From an uncultured archaeon (GTDB lineage: Archaea; Asgardarchaeota; Lokiarchaeia; Sigyniarchaeales; SOKP01): a stretch of 64,000 nt of DNA. The stretch's first letter is position 1; every line of letters starts with the position of its first letter. Of the stretch, positions 45,277 through 61,465 are shown piece after piece. Both the position numbers and the translations under genes were made by a program. A model generated the notes under the pieces. The model had not been told where the DNA came from. It did not search any database and saw only the letters and a program-made list of their open reading frames with translations. Location: the NCBI GenBank assembly GCA_964486045.1, contig CAZALK010000009.1, positions 64,001 through 128,000 of the forward strand, written 5' to 3'.

Positions 45277-46626
45277 TTATAATCTTATGTAGCGATTTCT
45301 TTCCCAGTCGCTTACAACAAGTCGATATGCATCAAATTCTTCTAATTTAGCATAATAATAATTCTTAAACGCAACTTCGCCAAATGTATCTTTCATTAAT
45401 TCAGATTTTTTGAATTCCGTGATTGCTTCACTTAGGCTTCCAGGTAAAGAAATAATCCCTTCTTTTTCCATTTCTTTTGATGATAAATGGTAAACATTTC
45501 TGTCTGTTGCCTCAGGAATTTCAATATCATCCGAGAGAAGTCCTTCTAACCCCGTTCTAATTAATACAGCAAATTGTAGATATGGATTGCCCGAAGGATC
45601 TGGACATCTTATCTCATTTCTAGCTGAATCAGGTTTTCCATGAAAGTCTGGTACTCTAATTAGGGGAGATCGATTTCTAAATCCCCAAGCTAGATAGACT
45701 GGAGCTTCATATCCCGGAACTAAACGCTTGTAAGAGTTAGGCCAACTACTTAATACAGCACACATAGCCCTAGCATGTTTTAATTGACCGGCCATCCATT
45801 TTTTCATTAATATAGAAATATTGTCTGCATCATTTTCATCATAGAAGATATTATTACCGCCTCTCCAAAGGGATTGGTGTACATGCATCCCAGATCCATT
45901 GATTCCATGAAAAGGCTTTGGCATAAATGTAGCAGTCATCTTATTTTGAGCTGCAACAGTTTTTACAATTGTTTTTATAGTAATTGTATTGTCTGCTGTA
46001 TCAACAGCTTTATCATATCGAAAGTCTATTTCATGCTGTCCATACGCTACCTCGTGGTGGACGCATTCGACATCAATTCCCATGGCATCGCAATATTCAG
46101 CAATAGTATATCTCATCAATTCGTTTATATCATATGGATCATAGTCGAAATATCCTCTCATATCTGAAGGTTTAAATTCTTGCGTAGTATCAGGAGTTAG
46201 TATAAAAAATTCCATTTCTGGAGCACATTGAAAAGTATAACCATGTTCTTCTGCTTTTCTTACAGCTCGTTGCAAAATATATCTTGGATCTCCTTCATAA
46301 CGTTTTCCATCTGGTGTATAAATGTCACAAATCACTCTTGCAACTTTTCTTTCTTTTCTCCATGGTAAAAGAAAAAATGTACTCGGGTCAGGTATAGCAA
46401 CTTTATCGGATTCCTCTATGGCTCCATAACCTGTAATGGAACTTCCGTCAAAGCTTTCGCCAATATCAAATATGTCTTCAATCCGTTTTGAGTTTATTTC
46501 AAAACTTTTGATTATCCCATGGATATCTGTAAATTGGAGATAGATAAATTTAATATCTTGTTCTTTTATCTTTTCAATTACAGCATCACATACCTGCTTC
46601 CTTTTTGGATCATCTTTTTCAATCAT
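45277..46626 (-). CDS. glnA: Glutamine synthetase type I (alpha)
   Basis: LQFTDIHG, FDGSSI, HHEVAYGQHEIDF, FMPKP...GSGMHVHQS, NSYKRLVPGYEAP, NRSPLIRVP. Confidence 0.98.
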   Translation of the reverse strand: MIEKDDPKRKQVCDAVIEKIKEQDIKFIYLQFTDIHGIIKSFEINSKRIEDIFDIGESFDGSSITGYGAIEESDKVAIPDPSTFFLLPWRKERKVARVICDIYTPDGKRYEGDPRYILQRAVRKAEEHGYTFQCAPEMEFFILTPDTTQEFKPSDMRGYFDYDPYDINELMRYTIAEYCDAMGIDVECVHHEVAYGQHEIDFRYDKAVDTADNTITIKTIVKTVAAQNKMTATFMPKPFHGINGSGMHVHQSLWRGGNNIFYDENDADNISILMKKWMAGQLKHARAMCAVLSSWPNSYKRLVPGYEAPVYLAWGFRNRSPLIRVPDFHGKPDSARNEIRCPDPSGNPYLQFAVLIRTGLEGLLSDDIEIPEATDRNVYHLSSKEMEKEGIISLPGSLSEAITEFKKSELMKDTFGEVAFKNYYYAKLEEFDAYRLVVSDWERNRYIRL

Positions 46627-54296: not shown

Positions 54297-54529
54297 ATAA
54301 CTCAAAGAATTCTCTTTTTCTCAATCTTCATTTTATTTAATTTCAAAACTCTTAGGAATTGTCCCTATGCCTATTGAAAAGATTTTCAATTTAAGATTTT
54401 AAGATTTATGAAAAGAATTTATCCCATACTTCTTGTAGGCTGAACTCGATAAATAACCTTTTCACTATTTTTAATTTAATAGGGTAAATATATTTAATAA
54501 ATATGAACAATACCTATTGAGTGAAAAAC

Positions 54530-54835
54530 ATGAAAGTTTTAAGTAAAGAAGAGATATTCAAGCTTCTTAAGCAACATAAAGAAGAATTAAAAAAGTATTT
54601 TGTAAGAAAGATTGGAATTTTTGGCTCCGTTTTGAGAGGAGATAATACTAATGAGAGTGATATCGATTTTATAGTTGAGTTTGAGGTTGGAAAAAAAAAT
54701 TATGATAATTTTATCGAATTGGCCTTTTTATTAGAACGTCTTTTGCAGAGAAAAGTAGAATTACTCACGACTGAAGCTCTCAGTCCTTATATGAAGCCTA
54801 AGATTCTAAAGGAGGCTTATTTTGAATCAATCTAA
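54530..54835 (+). CDS. mntA: Minimal nucleotidyltransferase (MNT) antitoxin
   Basis: IGIFGSVLRGDNTNESDIDFIVEF (GSx10DxD), LERLLQRKVEL. Confidence 0.9.
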   Translation: MKVLSKEEIFKLLKQHKEELKKYFVRKIGIFGSVLRGDNTNESDIDFIVEFEVGKKNYDNFIELAFLLERLLQRKVELLTTEALSPYMKPKILKEAYFESI

Positions 54836-55016
54836 AGATTATATGGACAAAATCAATCACATAATTGATGAGATTACTTATTTATTAACCAATTTAAAAG
54901 GATTAACGCATGATAAGTTCATTAAAGATGAAACGCTAAAGAGAGCATTTGTTAGAAGTTTGGAGATTATTGGAGAAGCCGTAAAAACCATTCCTAAACA
55001 TGTACGTGAACAGTAA
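54822..55016 (+). pseudogene. hepT: Truncated HEPN (DUF86/HepT) toxin
   Basis: DETLKRAFVRSLEIIGEAVK; ends at 64 aa, before the catalytic Rx4-6H motif. Confidence 0.85.
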
Positions 55017-55516: not shown

Positions 55517-55591
55517 TATAAAAAAATGAGATAATTAAGCGTAAGAGGAAAAGTAAGGCTATAAAAAATTTTTAAATAGGAGGTTTTAAAA

Positions 55592-55807
55592 ATAACAGTT
55601 CAAGAGTATTTTCGAACATGGGAAGAAATTTGCTTAGAAAAACTAAAAGAAATAGGAAGATCATCAGCCTCAGAATGGGCAAGGGCAATGGGATATGGAG
55701 AAAATCGTAATGGAGTAACAACCGTCATTAAAAGAATTAGAAAAACGATGCCAGAGAAATTGGTAATTTATTATAAACAAAGGCCTAGATTATACGAGGC
55801 TCAATAA
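55592..55807 (+). CDS. Small winged-helix-like DNA-binding protein, ATA start, absent from the ORF track
   Basis: 71 aa: TWEEICLEKLKEIGRSSASEWARAMGYGENRNGVTTVIKRIRK...RPRLYEAQ; SD AGGAGGT 7 nt upstream; in-frame TAG at 55577. Confidence 0.75.
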   Translation: MTVQEYFRTWEEICLEKLKEIGRSSASEWARAMGYGENRNGVTTVIKRIRKTMPEKLVIYYKQRPRLYEAQ

Positions 55808-55831
55808 ATAAGAAAAAGGATGTGAACAAAA

Positions 55832-56332
55832 ATATCATTAAAATGTCATCTTTGCGGAAAAGAGATTTATCATGACAGCAAGATATGTCAAATATGTGAA
55901 GAAACAGCTACCAAAAGTGCATTATCCCACAGTGGAAGAGAAGTCAAGAAGTGGAGATGTGATAACTTTTTAGAATTAAAAAGTTTACCATTTGGATGTA
56001 ATCTAGGTTCAGGAATCGAAATTGGCCCGAAAATGATTAATTGCCCTGAGTGCGGAGAGGAATACTCATATGGAAGAAAAATTAGCCATATTTGCCAGGA
56101 CAATTCAATTGAGTTTGGTAAAATATTCGAATTTGAACACCAAGGCCATAAGTGGAATTGTGATACGGCAATGGCATGCATGGAATTATTAACATCCAAT
56201 CTAGATTCAGTTGAATCATTTGTAGAAAAAATCCCGCGTATTGAAAAACTCGAGACAAACGATCATAAATGGAATGATTTAAAATTGAACATTGAGATAG
56301 ATGTGAAGAAGAACCATCTAATTTATGAATAA
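55832..56332 (+). CDS. Uncharacterised tandem zinc-ribbon protein (KWxC/LxYE family, copy B), ATA start
   Basis: The frame of ORF 56033..56332 is open back to ATA 55832: MSLKCHLCGKEIYHDSKICQICEE...KKWRCD, then MINCPECGEEYSYGRKISHICQD...HKWNCD...LIYE*; SD-like GGATGTGA 6 nt upstream. Confidence 0.82.
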   Translation: MSLKCHLCGKEIYHDSKICQICEETATKSALSHSGREVKKWRCDNFLELKSLPFGCNLGSGIEIGPKMINCPECGEEYSYGRKISHICQDNSIEFGKIFEFEHQGHKWNCDTAMACMELLTSNLDSVESFVEKIPRIEKLETNDHKWNDLKLNIEIDVKKNHLIYE

Positions 56333-56523: not shown

Positions 56524-57891
56524 TTGATAAAATTAAAGAGGTTTAAAAAAATTCAGCAAGAGATTGTATTATTCCCGGGATGTGTAATTACTTATCGGCT
56601 CCCTTTTATTGAAGTTTCAATAAGAAAGGCTTTCGATTATTTAGGGATCGCATTCACAGAAAATTCAAAGTTTTCCTGTTGTCCTGAACCTAATGGAATC
56701 AAAAACTCGAATAAGTTATTATTTTCCATAGCTGCTGCACGGAATCTTGCTCTTGCTGAGAAGGAGAATAAATCTATTTTAACACCCTGTAATGGGTGTT
56801 TTACAACTTTCAAAAAAATAAAAGGTGAAATTGAGGAGGATCACCACTTCAGGAGGAAAGTTAATGATTATTTAGATAAAATTGATCTTAAAGTTCAGGG
56901 AGATTTAGAAGTTTATCATATGGTCGAATTCTTTTCTAAATTCAGAAGAGAAGCAATTAAGGATAATTTAAATTATACCTTGACTGGTTTAAGAGTTGCT
57001 GTGTTTTATGGTTGTCACTTCCTCAGACCAAGTAATATGGTGCAGATAGATGACCCGCTAGAGCCAACCATATTTGATAATTTAATTGAGGATTTAGGTG
57101 CTCAAAGTATTGATTATGATCTCAAGATGGAGTGTTGTGGGGGAAGCCTTGGGAGAGCAGGGAATCCAGCCCTATCATTAGAGATAATAAATGCGAAATT
57201 AGCCAGCATGAAGGAGAATAAAGTTGATTGCATAGTCGTGTGCTGTCCTCAATGTTTTATTCAGTTTGATCATTTACAACATGACTTAAAAAAAGATGAT
57301 CATAATTACGATATTCCCGTTTTATATTATTCAGAAATTGTTTGTATCGCATTAGGGATTGACATTCGAGAAATTATGAAAAAAAACCACAGAACACAAG
57401 TTGAATCCCTTTTTAACAAATTAGAAATCATCCAAGAGAAAAATAGTGAGATAAGAAAACATTTCGATCTTAATTTCTTACTCAAGTGTTATTCATGTAA
57501 AGCATGTGATGATGACTGTATTATTTCAACTAAGACTGAATTCAAACCGAGTGAAATTGTTGGTAGACTTCTTGAGGGAAAAGTTGAGGATGTAATATCA
57601 GATCCTTCAATTTGGTTGTGCCTTGATTGCTATTTATGTTATGAGCTGTGTCCTATGAGGGTTGGGGTGATTGAAATTTTTTCAATATTACGAAACCTTG
57701 CGACAGAACGAGGTCATACTACCAAGGGATATAAGGGTGAATTTGAATCCTTTTATCAAAAAGGAACTGTGGGTATGTTTTCAAAGTCAGCCCGTAAAAG
57801 AGTGGGCTTAGAATCTACAAAACCAAACGTTGGAGATTTGAAAGAATTATTTAATATTATTGAAAGAGAAAATGTAAAACCAGATTCTTAA
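56524..57891 (+). CDS. Heterodisulfide-reductase-like HdrB-HdrC fusion
   Basis: Two CCG domains (LFPGC, SCCP, PCNGC, YGCH, ECCG, CPQC), then CYSCKACDDDC and CLDCYLCYELCP; likely start ATT 56551. Confidence 0.92.
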   Translation: MIKLKRFKKIQQEIVLFPGCVITYRLPFIEVSIRKAFDYLGIAFTENSKFSCCPEPNGIKNSNKLLFSIAAARNLALAEKENKSILTPCNGCFTTFKKIKGEIEEDHHFRRKVNDYLDKIDLKVQGDLEVYHMVEFFSKFRREAIKDNLNYTLTGLRVAVFYGCHFLRPSNMVQIDDPLEPTIFDNLIEDLGAQSIDYDLKMECCGGSLGRAGNPALSLEIINAKLASMKENKVDCIVVCCPQCFIQFDHLQHDLKKDDHNYDIPVLYYSEIVCIALGIDIREIMKKNHRTQVESLFNKLEIIQEKNSEIRKHFDLNFLLKCYSCKACDDDCIISTKTEFKPSEIVGRLLEGKVEDVISDPSIWLCLDCYLCYELCPMRVGVIEIFSILRNLATERGHTTKGYKGEFESFYQKGTVGMFSKSARKRVGLESTKPNVGDLKELFNIIERENVKPDS

Positions 57892-57909
57892 AAAATAAAA
57901 AGGAGAAAA

Positions 57910-59103
57910 GTGATGAGATGGGAAAATTATACATCCTTACCGGAACAATTTAGGAATCAGAGGGTGTTTGATGGATGTGGAATCTCCGGTTTCATTAATA
58001 TTGATGGCAGCAGAGTTTCAGGGGATAAAGTAATTGATATGTTATGTATTTTAAAAGACAGAGAAAATGGCCTTGGTGCTGGTTTTGCAGGATATGGAAT
58101 TTATCCTGAGTTTAAAGATTATTATGCTTTTCATTTTCTTTTTGACAACGATAATGCTAAATTAAAATCATTAAAATATCTTGAAAAAAATGGCAGAATA
58201 ATAAAATCTGAGGTAATACCTACAAATCTACCATCTGGTATTGATAATCCTCCTATTATCTGGAGAGTATTTTTTGATCCTGAGAATTGCAAAAACCAAG
58301 ATTGCGATGAGAAAATCGTTCAATTAGTTATGGAAATCAATTCAAATATAGAAAATGCCTTTGTAATGTCATCTGGAAAAGATCTGGGTGTGTTTAAAGG
58401 GAATGGCTGGTCATATGAAATAGCTGATTTTTATAAAATTTCAGATTATGACGGATATATGTGGTTAGGACATTCAAGGTTCCCAACAAATACACCTGGA
58501 TGGTGGGGTGGTGCACATCCATTTAATCTGTTAAATTGTTCGGTGGTTCATAATGGGGAGATAACGTCTTATGGAACGAATAAAAGGTATTTAGATTCAT
58601 TTGGATATAAATGTACTCTTTTTACCGATACAGAAGTTATCGCATACTTATTTGATCTCTTATGTCGTAAACATAATATTCCGGTATATCTCGCTGCTAT
58701 TGCTTTAGCACCTCCATTATATAAAGATATTGAAAAATTAGATAAAAAATCTCAAATAATATTTAAAAACATAAGAGCGACTTATAAGAGCGCCATGTTG
58801 AACGGTCCGTTTTCTATTGTTGTTGGCTATTCAAATCCCGTCCCTACAATGATAGGATTGTCGGATAGAAAAAAGTTACGACCCTTAGTGGCGGGAATTT
58901 CTGAAGATAGAAACACAGTTTACATGAGTAGCGAGGAAGCCTCTTTCAAAAGATTGATGCTTAAAGATAGTGATTTTAATTTACAAGATATTTGGCACCC
59001 AAAAAGTGGGACTGCTGTTATAGCCAAAGTTGGGAAAGGATTAATAAGTGATGGACTCGAAATTCCGTTAAAAAAAGAAAAATTTTCTACAGTAGAGGTG
59101 TGA
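57910..59103 (+). CDS. gltB1: Glutamate synthase domain 1 (class II glutamine amidotransferase, GltB1)
   Basis: DGCGISG, RENGLGAG, GHSRFPTNT, HPF, VHNGEI, TDTE, DRKKLRP. Confidence 0.92.
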   Translation: MMRWENYTSLPEQFRNQRVFDGCGISGFINIDGSRVSGDKVIDMLCILKDRENGLGAGFAGYGIYPEFKDYYAFHFLFDNDNAKLKSLKYLEKNGRIIKSEVIPTNLPSGIDNPPIIWRVFFDPENCKNQDCDEKIVQLVMEINSNIENAFVMSSGKDLGVFKGNGWSYEIADFYKISDYDGYMWLGHSRFPTNTPGWWGGAHPFNLLNCSVVHNGEITSYGTNKRYLDSFGYKCTLFTDTEVIAYLFDLLCRKHNIPVYLAAIALAPPLYKDIEKLDKKSQIIFKNIRATYKSAMLNGPFSIVVGYSNPVPTMIGLSDRKKLRPLVAGISEDRNTVYMSSEEASFKRLMLKDSDFNLQDIWHPKSGTAVIAKVGKGLISDGLEIPLKKEKFSTVEV

Positions 59104-59115
59104 AAACTGGCATTA

Positions 59116-60627
59116 GTGCATGAAATTCTTCCATATTATCGAGTAAATGTTGATCGAGAATATTGCAAGAAATGCAAAAGATGTATAACTCACTGTTCAT
59201 TCGGAGCGTTGTCTTTTAATGGAGAAAGAATTGTTGCGACTGATAATAAGTGTGTAGCATGCCAAAGATGTGTGGTAATGTGCCCAGGTAAGGCAATACG
59301 CATTGTTAAAAATGATGCCTATTTACCTCAACATGGTAATTACACAAGAAAGATTCGAAATATGATATGGGCTCAATCTGGAAGCGGAGGTGTTTTACTT
59401 TCTGCAACTGGAAACGATAGACCAATTAGATCTATTTTTGACGATTTACTTCTTGATGCCTGCCAAGTAACAAATCCCAGTATCGATCCCTTAAGAGAAA
59501 CAATTGAGACTAAAATAGTTTTTGGGCGAAAACCAAAACAACTTGAATTCATTGGTGAATCAGATGATATAAATGAGATATCATTAAAGACCAAACTTTT
59601 TCCAAATTTTGATATAGATATGCCAATTATGGTTGGTCATATGTCTTTAGGGTCAATTAGCTACAATGCATGTCAAGCAATATATCAAGCAGCAAGTGAA
59701 TTAAATATTGTTGCAGGTTCAGGAGAAGGTGGTCTACATCAAGATTTTTATGAATATGCCCCAAATATCATTACAGAAGTTGCATCGGGAAGGTTTGGGG
59801 TAGATATTAATTATTTACACAACGCTGCGGGCTTAGAAATTAAGATAGGCCAAGGAGCTAAACCTGGTCACGGTGGTCATTTACCTGGTGAGAAAGTGAG
59901 TAGTTTAATTTCGCAAACACGAATGATTCCTCAAGGAAGTGATGCGTTATCTCCCTATCCTCATCATGATATTTATTCAATAGAGGATTTAGCCCAATTA
60001 ATAGCAGCATTAAAAGAAGCAACAAGATATAATGTTCCTGTGGGAGTAAAAATTGCTGCAGTTCATAACTCCGCTCCCATAGCTGTAGGAATTGTTAGAG
60101 GTGGTGCTGATTTTCTAACAATTGATGGTTTTAGAGGTGGAACAGGAGCTGCTCCAAGAATTATTCGAGATCATGCAGGAATTCCTATAGAATTAGCAAT
60201 TGCTGCCGTGGATGAAAGATTAAGACAAGAAGGATTACGAGAAGAGATAACATTAATTGCTGGAGGTTCAATTCGATATTCTGCCGACCTAATCAAAGCT
60301 ATTGCGTTAGGAGCTGATGTAGCAATGTGTTGTATGCCAGTATTAATAGCAATGGGATGTCGAGTTTGTCAACAATGTTTTAAAGGTACTTGCTCATGGG
60401 GAATCGCAACTCAACAAGAATATTTAGTGAAGAGATTAGATATTGATGTTGCGAAAAAAAGAATTATAAATTTATTTCATTCTTGGAATGAAGAATTAAA
60501 AGAAGTATTAGGAGCGATGGGTATTGATTCTGTAGAGTCGCTCCGTTCAAATAGGGATCGGTTAAGATATATCGGTCCTAATCCGCGTATTGCGGATATA
60601 TTGGGAGTAAAACATGCTGGGGAATAA
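59116..60627 (+). CDS. gltB2: Glutamate synthase FMN-binding domain 2 with N-terminal 2x[4Fe-4S] ferredoxin (GltB2)
   Basis: CKKCKRCITHC, CVACQRCVVMCP, MSLGSIS, SGEGG, EIKIGQGAKPGHGGHLPGEKV, HHDIYSIEDL, CRVCQQCFKGTC; start may be CTG 59107. Confidence 0.96.
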   Translation: MHEILPYYRVNVDREYCKKCKRCITHCSFGALSFNGERIVATDNKCVACQRCVVMCPGKAIRIVKNDAYLPQHGNYTRKIRNMIWAQSGSGGVLLSATGNDRPIRSIFDDLLLDACQVTNPSIDPLRETIETKIVFGRKPKQLEFIGESDDINEISLKTKLFPNFDIDMPIMVGHMSLGSISYNACQAIYQAASELNIVAGSGEGGLHQDFYEYAPNIITEVASGRFGVDINYLHNAAGLEIKIGQGAKPGHGGHLPGEKVSSLISQTRMIPQGSDALSPYPHHDIYSIEDLAQLIAALKEATRYNVPVGVKIAAVHNSAPIAVGIVRGGADFLTIDGFRGGTGAAPRIIRDHAGIPIELAIAAVDERLRQEGLREEITLIAGGSIRYSADLIKAIALGADVAMCCMPVLIAMGCRVCQQCFKGTCSWGIATQQEYLVKRLDIDVAKKRIINLFHSWNEELKEVLGAMGIDSVESLRSNRDRLRYIGPNPRIADILGVKHAGE

Positions 60628-61465
60628 AAAAATGGTAGTAAATGGAATTGAAGAAAGGAAGTTTGATATAGGAATTAACGAAACAGTTGAGATAAACGCT
60701 GCTCCAAATGGAGAACCATTGGAATATAAAGAATTAAATGAACAAATTCATCAAGCAGTTAATGCGCATAATAAAAAAATCATTTTACATAATGTATGCG
60801 GTCAAAGATTCATAGGAGCTGCCTTACAAGGAGACATTGAAATTGAAATTGATGGGATCCCTGGAAATGATCTGGGTATTTTCATGGATGGTCCAAAAAT
60901 TTTTGTTGATGGAAATTGTGAAGATCAATCTGGGAATACTATGAACGATGGAACAATGATAATTAACGGAGATGGTGGCGACGTCATAGGATTATCTTCG
61001 AGAGGAGGAAAAATTTATATTAAAGGAGACGTCGGATATCGTGTAGGGATTCATATGAAAGAGTATGAGGATAAACATCCTGTGATAATTATTGGTGGCA
61101 CAGCTAAAGACTTTTTGGGTGAATATATGGCCGGTGGAATCATTATTGTACTTGGTTTAACATTCTTGAAAGATGGAATTATACTTGAAAATGGTCGGAC
61201 AGTATGTGGTAATGAATTGGGAACTGGAATTCATAGAGGAAGTATTTTTTTGAGAACAAATGAGAACTTAGAAGAGAAGCTTGGCGTTGGGGCAAAAATT
61301 TCAGATTATGGAGATAATGAACAGGCTGAAATTATGCCTTACTTAATTGACTACTGTAAAACATTCAACATTCCATTAGATCTAGTTATTAATAAATCGT
61401 TTAAAGTAATCAAACCAATATCAAAAAGACCTTTTGGAGGTACCTATTGTAGTCAATTAATTTAA
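60614..61465 (+). CDS. gltB3: Glutamate synthase domain 3 (GXGXG beta-helix, GltB3)
   Basis: GQRFIG, GIPGNDLG, GDVGYRVGIHM, FLGEYMAGG; start may be ATG 60632. Confidence 0.93.
   Translation: MLGNKKMVVNGIEERKFDIGINETVEINAAPNGEPLEYKELNEQIHQAVNAHNKKIILHNVCGQRFIGAALQGDIEIEIDGIPGNDLGIFMDGPKIFVDGNCEDQSGNTMNDGTMIINGDGGDVIGLSSRGGKIYIKGDVGYRVGIHMKEYEDKHPVIIIGGTAKDFLGEYMAGGIIIVLGLTFLKDGIILENGRTVCGNELGTGIHRGSIFLRTNENLEEKLGVGAKISDYGDNEQAEIMPYLIDYCKTFNIPLDLVINKSFKVIKPISKRPFGGTYCSQLI

Follow-up and report, generated by a model that had tools for sequence, protein, structure and literature searches.

An HdrB–HdrC fusion encoded with split glutamate synthases of Asgard archaea, ANME-2 and anaerobic bacteria: a candidate thiol-fed electron-input subunit

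In methanogens, the CCG subunit of thiol:fumarate reductase (TfrAB) has been proposed to oxidize thiols for a biosynthetic reduction, and in HdrD of heterodisulfide reductase (Hdr) the Fe-S domain comes first. In the sHdr system of sulfur oxidation, Hdr-like non-cubane proteins are tied genetically to a lipoylated carrier (LbpA), to lipoate-assembly genes and sometimes to a dihydrolipoyl dehydrogenase (E3); the lipoate-binding protein is essential, and lipoamide has a standard potential (E0′) of −0.29 V (PMC6067878). Glutamate synthases (GOGATs) that use NAD(P)H, ferredoxin or, by proposal, coenzyme F420 share a glutaminase, a synthase domain with flavin mononucleotide (FMN) and a [3Fe-4S] cluster, and a GXGXG domain. 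The electron donor of the split archaeal type, in which three genes (gltB1, gltB2 and gltB3) encode these parts, is largely unproven: a role for F420 through GltB1–3 and the FrhB-like protein MTH193 “remains to be proven” (PMC3087415), and an F420-GOGAT has likewise been proposed for FrhB10 in anaerobic methanotrophic archaea (ANME; PMC9012536). Here we describe a gene for a 455-aa fusion of HdrB and HdrC that directly precedes such a glutamate synthase in a 64,000-nt stretch of an uncultured Lokiarchaeia archaeon (assembly GCA_964486045.1, contig CAZALK010000009.1, positions 64,001–128,000; hereafter the window), whose nearest relatives are Promethearchaeota. The fusion (56524–57891, plus strand) is proposed to be a thiol-oxidizing electron-input subunit.

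The fusion gene opens a tightly packed run of four plus-strand genes. It ends 18 nt before gltB1 (57910–59103), which encodes a class II glutamine amidotransferase (GATase_2/6); gltB2 follows at 59116–60627 (Glu_synthase, E = 4e-128) and overlaps by 14 nt, in open reading frame (ORF) coordinates, with gltB3 (60614–61465), which encodes the GXGXG beta-helix subunit (PF01493, E = 4e-31). Judging from homologs of 506 aa, the true start of gltB2 is probably a CTG near 59107. GltB1 has its nucleophile at Cys23, behind a short propeptide, and the Cys motif is found in 146 of 152 homologs. GltB2, which can be aligned to the GltB structures 7mfm, 1llw and 1ea0, consists of an N-terminal 2×[4Fe-4S] ferredoxin domain, the FMN synthase domain and then a [3Fe-4S] motif (CxxCxxCxxxxC), and its cysteines and active-site loops are invariant in 74 sequences. 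Each of the three genes is present once in the genome, with no second gltB2, and together they form a split archaeal-type glutamate synthase. The compact run described in a first-pass annotation of the window thus agrees with the ORF coordinates, and the run itself holds, as that annotation stated, no gltD, frhB or hdrA; but a GltD-like gene lies 9.3 kb past gltB3 (contig C9:134801–136228, just outside the window, in a nuoE/F/G-like cluster), and about eleven HdrA-like ORFs occur in the genome. Neither the GltD encoded with gltB in NAD(P)H-GOGATs nor the FrhB-like subunit of the proposed F420-GOGAT is part of the run. Where known GOGATs use these inputs, the partner here has no flavin or nucleotide site and is a CCG thiol/disulfide module.

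The linkage between the fusion and gltB genes is far beyond chance, and the synteny survey across archaea and bacteria that the annotation had called for found it conserved from both query sides. With gltB2 as the query, 49 loci from outside Methanomassiliicoccales were informative; 45 of them have a full fusion directly before gltB1, one has a fusion remnant and three have no fusion. A search with the fusion only, in which no gltB information was used, returned 80 metagenome loci, and gltB lies within 6 kb in 71 of them, while the remaining nine loci break off no more than 219 nt from the fusion. Among 101 genomes of the order, which are kin and so not independent, the fusion occurs in 22, all of them among the 25 with a close GltB2, and in none of the other 76. 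To avoid picked examples, 400 genomes were drawn evenly from the phylum Bacillota: 16 (centre genome included) carry the fusion and gltB genes adjoin it in every one. In a draw of 251 Halobacteriota genomes, for each of which few candidates were scored, two carried the fusion. By source labels the hosts include the archaeal groups Promethearchaeota, Helarchaeota, Thermoplasmata, Ca. Methanoperedens and other ANME-2 and, among bacteria, Bacillota, Nitrospirota, Actinomycetota, Acidulodesulfobacterium and Zixiibacteriota. The gene order varies, in that the fusion may open the run, close it or stand between gltB3 and gltB1, and the association is kept. The setting is one of nitrogen metabolism: glnA is found in 40 of 136 fusion loci, with amt, P-II and ANTAR regulator genes also near, and the window carries a glutamine synthetase gene of its own about 10 kb upstream of the run (glnA, 45277–46626, minus strand; contig C9:109277–110626; phmmer E = 2e-122 to type I GlnA), as expected of a glutamine synthetase/GOGAT context. 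No FrhB (one FrhB query) and no pair of Fe-S and NirB-like genes was found in the 136 loci. We consider the fusion very probably a functional partner of GltB, and the fusion unit is a real, widespread and undescribed electron-input variant of glutamate synthase; searches of the open literature (subscription journals not covered) found no account of a glutamate synthase linked to Hdr or to a lipoyl protein, and two Hdr surveys (PMC9012536, PMC12054007) make no mention of it.

In the Protein Data Bank the fusion is best matched by subunits of solved HdrABC complexes, HdrB with E = 5e-57 and HdrC with E = 2e-17. An AlphaFold model (mean predicted local distance difference test score 93.5; predicted template modeling score 0.87) superimposes on HdrB 8rvy_b with Z 38.7 and a root-mean-square deviation (rmsd) of 1.5 Å over 282 aa, and on HdrC 5odh_I with Z 11.4; across the HdrB/HdrC proteins of 5ODC, 7BKB and 8RVU/8RVY the rmsd is 1.5–1.7 Å over about 285 aa. 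Pfam finds two CCG domains and Fer4. The HdrB domain (aa 14–300; 56563–57423), which spans the CCG domains, has two non-cubane [4Fe-4S] sites, with ligands C20/C52/C53/C89/C92 at site 1 and C164/H165/C204/C205/C241/C244 at site 2, and the HdrC domain (aa 316–443; 57469–57852; TIGR03290 match) binds 2×[4Fe-4S] through C322/325/328/332 and C366/369/372/376. In 89 dereplicated fusions the ten non-cubane and eight ferredoxin cysteines are each 98–100% conserved and H165 is conserved in 91%. The fusion thus has the two CCG domains, the ten cluster cysteines and the fold of a CoB-CoM (coenzyme B-coenzyme M) HdrB and shares the ligand set and the HdrC clusters with HdrABC.

Unlike HdrABC, the fusion is one chain in B-then-C order, tied to gltB, with no HdrA in the unit and neither HdrA nor HdrE encoded alongside in the run. 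Its score on TIGR03288 is 244 bits, below the equivalog cut-off of 345, whereas the canonical HdrB that adjoins an ANME operon reaches 471 bits. The CCPAPGV and CCGAGGG loops of CoM/CoB HdrB occur in none of the 89 fusions, ANME ones included, and the glycine-rich sequences are replaced in the window protein by CCPEPNG and CCGGSLG; a comparative argument suggests that these loops would set the substrate choice of HdrB. The HdrB domains of 87 of the 89 fusions group with five shorter HdrB proteins in a clade of their own (FastTree support 0.98). One of the five belongs to an unfused hdrB-hdrC pair directly before a lone gltB2 (L220:7001–9856), with no gltB1 or gltB3 within 13 kb, and another is encoded downstream of a prismane (hybrid-cluster) gene, not of gltB (L219:4825–7867). 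By these comparisons the fusion appears to work like HdrB but does not belong to the CoB-CoM reductase family. It also differs from HdrD and TfrB, in which an N-terminal Fe-S domain is followed by the CCG domains. The C-terminal half of the TfrB profile (258–477) aligns to the N-terminal part of the fusion (aa 8–266), so the order is reversed, with CCG first and ferredoxin last, as the annotation had pointed out for HdrD. With TfrAB the system shares a CCG subunit and, by proposal, thiol oxidation for biosynthesis, but an FMN synthase stands in place of the FAD-dependent fumarate reductase, many hosts are non-methanogens, and the fusion scores 57 bits against a cut-off of 385 on NCBIfam NF004898.

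A candidate for the thiol comes from bacterial operons. The operon of one distant homolog has the order glnA-gltB3-lpdA-lipoyl domain-fusion-gltB1-gltB2, and other Bacillota operons have the order glnA-gltB1-B2-B3-lpdA-lipB-lipA-lipoyl domain-fusion. E3 is encoded in 14 of the 16 Bacillota operons and lipB with lipA in five; a stand-alone 76-aa lipoyl domain directly precedes the fusion in 11, and in one more gcvH follows gltB1. The lpdA, lipB and lipA products score above their NCBIfam cut-offs, and the lipoyl lysine and E3 disulfide motif are intact. In the cultured Carboxydothermus hydrogenoformans, whose operon is one of the 16, the fusion (ABB15823.1/Q3AE66) lies beside E3, glnA and gltB1–3, with gcvH elsewhere; C. 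pertinax and C. ferrireducens also have the fusion. ANME-2, a separate lineage with another lipoate route, shows some loci of the order fusion-gltB1-3-hdrCBA-lplA and some with lplA/lipS1/lipS2 4.5 kb upstream. Lipoyl or lipoate genes are clustered with hdr-like genes, as in sHdr, in the Bacillota homologs and partly in ANME-2, while for the window locus they lie in trans. The sHdr system differs in being catabolic, in including HdrA and sulfur carriers and in having a carrier unlike the E2-type 76-aa domain of the Bacillota fusion operons; the proposal for sHdr is that lipoamide is reduced, and ours is that it would be oxidized for nitrogen assimilation. No hdrA is present at the window locus, and TusA and DsrE are absent among recurring neighbors, although no family-model search for them was made. 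Thermoplasmata genome G043 (L217/L218) has lplA-gcvH-hdrC-hdrB and lplA-gcvH-lipS2 clusters, and a Methanoperedens genome has several GcvH-like genes; lipoyl carriers are tied to other HdrB types too. At a single ANME-2d-like locus (L150:13307–14728) a Methanosarcina-type dihydrolipoyl dehydrogenase, above its cut-off, lies 670 nt past gltB3 in the opposite orientation.

Elsewhere in the Loki genome the parts of such a donor chain are encoded: an E3 above its cut-off (C21:7165), a GcvH (C14:89463; a glycine-cleavage operon is also in the genome), a stand-alone GcvH-like lipoyl protein whose gene belongs to no gcv operon (C15:105020–105412; L201:521–913) and a lipS1-lplA-lipS2 cluster (C15:27166–30012) with LipS1 and LipS2 above cut-off. 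Of 90 family genomes, 88 have a match to the stand-alone GcvH-like protein, with 57–95% identity; being nearly universal in the family, this second GcvH is available but not specific. The lipS2-lplA-lipS1 genes (L202:2792–8013, C15) run directly into genes that by sequence appearance are cofE- and cofD-like (F420 synthesis).

We propose the following route. NADH would reduce E3, which would then reduce the lipoyl group on a small carrier protein; the two carrier thiolates would bind the two non-cubane clusters of HdrB and leave as a disulfide. Single electrons would pass from HdrB through the two HdrC clusters to the ferredoxin domain of GltB2, on to its [3Fe-4S] cluster and to FMN, which would reduce the imine of 2-oxoglutarate and ammonia, the latter freed from glutamine by GltB1, to glutamate. 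Carrier, E3 and lipoate-synthesis genes would be those inside the operon in Bacillota and those encoded elsewhere in the Loki genome. Taking −0.29 V for lipoamide and about −0.065 V for the effective acceptor (textbook values), we calculate about −43 kJ/mol for the reaction. That the fusion acts by thiol chemistry is probable. The likeliest thiol is protein-bound dihydrolipoamide on a lipoylated carrier protein; as donor this is a good prospect for Bacillota, only slightly less assured than the thiol chemistry itself, and for the Loki genome an evenly balanced one. We lean slightly toward the fusion being a dedicated fourth subunit in the Loki genome that replaces GltD/FrhB and is fed by a lipoyl carrier. 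Whether Asgard archaea, ANME-2 and anaerobic bacteria share an undescribed lipoyl-protein-dependent class of glutamate synthase (NADH, E3, lipoyl carrier, HdrBC, GltB1–3) is a proposal that could fall either way. The annotation had suggested a thiol-fed HdrBC in place of GltD: its dedicated unit stands, and synteny, ligands and carrier genes make a thiol/disulfide source the most likely one, whereas the physical complex, the direction of electron flow, the activity and the identity of the thiol are what we infer from them. Its candidate thiol, the adjacent Cys-rich zinc-ribbon proteins, did not hold up: they are found in 10 of 140 fusion loci and in four loci without the fusion and so are not a general partner.

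Several observations weigh against this reading. Sister clades of GltB1–3 do without the fusion: close relatives lack it at 21 loci of Methanomassiliicoccales type and also at L051, L066 and L069, and the fusion was not found in the five Methanomassiliicoccales-type genomes searched, so GltB1–3 can be fed otherwise. The lipoyl operons of Bacillota are confined to one subclade, so that the association may reflect one event, and two Bacillota operons and loci L118/L119 have no lipoyl genes nearby. The ANME lipoate genes could serve the neighboring HdrABC instead, and a Methanoperedens genome (G273; L210/L214/L216) has three GcvH-like genes but no E3 match. Neither the window operon nor any fetched Asgard locus contains a lipoyl or E3 gene, which is why the carrier in the Loki genome has to be placed in trans; in another fusion genome (G041, completeness not given) GcvH was not found and the E3 match was weak. 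The stand-alone GcvH-like gene does not track the fusion and, present in 92 of the 101 order genomes, was ruled out as a fusion-specific marker.

Among other accounts, the one nearest to ours keeps the subunit and its thiol chemistry and has CoM-SH, alone or together with CoB-SH, or a dithiol of the glutaredoxin/ferredoxin:thioredoxin reductase type as the Loki donor, by analogy with thiol:fumarate reductase. The window genome encodes ComD above its cut-off with a ComE-like neighbor (C10:182922–183970) and a glutaredoxin and ferredoxin:thioredoxin reductase pair, ANME-2 hosts, whose operons in many cases continue into hdrCBA, make CoM and CoB, and the CoM-S-S-CoB potential of −138 to −281 mV would be enough (PMC12054007); the loops after CCP and CCG also differ among fusion lineages, so the donor may differ too. 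ComDE thus keeps CoM among the candidates, but ComA was not found in the window genome, the loops typical of CoM/CoB HdrB are missing from the fusions, even in ANME, the window protein falls below the TIGR03288 cut-off, and a glutaredoxin/ferredoxin:thioredoxin reductase gene is near only 1 of 86 loci (L109–L194), plus a duplicate contig of the same locus. We therefore rate another thiol unlikely, though ahead of the remaining accounts. If instead no thiol were oxidized, the fusion could be a mere relay or dock between GltB and HdrA, Nfn/GltD or ferredoxin from elsewhere, for which the HdrA-like ORFs and the GltD-like gene 9.3 kb away offer partners and hdrA or hdrCBA adjoins 12 of 136 fusion loci. 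In the mapped cases, though, the adjacent hdrA brings its own hdrB and hdrC; HdrC would suffice for a relay, yet the ten HdrB ligands are retained, and E3, the lipoyl carrier and lipA/lipB inside operons would be left unexplained. A relay seems improbable to us. Nearby GltD/Nfn genes were rejected as a partner of the fusion and gltB, since GltD matches occur in 4 of 136 fusion loci, in close relatives only and downstream of guaA, separated by pepF and guaA.

Electrons could also run the other way, from glutamate, or from ferredoxin at GltB2, to lipoamide and hence to NAD+, as a redox valve. Loki archaea are amino-acid fermenters, and the hdrB-hdrC-gltB2 locus without gltB1 or gltB3 would suit such a flow; in the sHdr model, moreover, lipoamide takes up electrons from the Hdr-like complex and is reoxidized by E3 (PMC6067878). 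Against this, the glutaminase Cys of GltB1 is retained, the glnA, amt, P-II and ANTAR neighbors mark an ammonia-assimilation setting, and oxidizing glutamate with lipoamide is strongly uphill; reverse flow is accordingly a marginal prospect, less probable still than a relay. We give least credence, and very little of it, to mere co-regulation of neighbors or to GltB1–3 being an N-methylglutamate-synthase-like enzyme with the fusion acting separately. Related GltB1–3 do occur without the fusion, but the fusion was never found apart from gltB where the contig allowed a check, the linkage survives shuffles of gene order, and by its scores the neighboring GlnA is of type I rather than type III.

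Should lipoyl-fed glutamate synthesis be correct, a lipoylated protein would be the real substrate of a non-methanogen HdrB, which suggests that lipoyl carriers replace CoM/CoB for many orphan HdrB proteins, and lipoic acid would gain a new role in biosynthesis, purely that of carrying electrons. The fusion family offers a concrete answer both to the donor question of split glutamate synthases and to the open question of what HdrB homologs use in hosts without CoM/CoB, and the proposal can be tested in cultured C. hydrogenoformans.

Other gltB operons carry other candidate inputs. In two more distant Asgard genomes (L024:5899–7637 and L025) a gltB operon without the fusion encodes, between gltB2 and gltB3, an Fe-S protein of 155 aa and a NirB-like NADH oxidoreductase of 424 aa. 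Three Loki loci (L026, L027 and L028) encode a GltB2-like protein of about 820 aa, an 811-aa GltB1-like protein, EtfB and EtfA beside glnA, which may form an ETF-coupled glutamate synthase; comparably strong GltB2 matches are present in 9 of the 101 order genomes, and the fusion accompanies them in just one. Given these alternatives, the input module looks interchangeable and the fusion looks like one of several such modules, with no universal requirement for it. A 530–550-aa FMN-type GltB2-like paralog with an N-terminal Cys cluster is encoded beside the operon in at least 14 loci, with or without the fusion (among them L017, L018, L047, L049, L054, L079, L088 and L251:4744–6324).

Past the end of the window, C9:129802–137671 holds nuoE-, nuoF-, nuoG/fdhA- and gltD-like genes and then a glutamate dehydrogenase gene, a cluster of bifurcating type that adjoins nitrogen genes. 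Upstream of the fusion, the zinc-ribbon frame occupies 55810–56332 (plus strand), with two CxxC pairs preceding the ATG at 56033; its 5′ half has no ATG, GTG or TTG start in the window, and relatives have a single 170-aa ORF. A small ORF of 70–80 aa lies ahead of it near 55590–55806. Further upstream still, 54521–55016 (plus strand) encodes what appears to be a nucleotidyltransferase and HEPN-type toxin-antitoxin pair, the second gene of which is cut at 64 aa.

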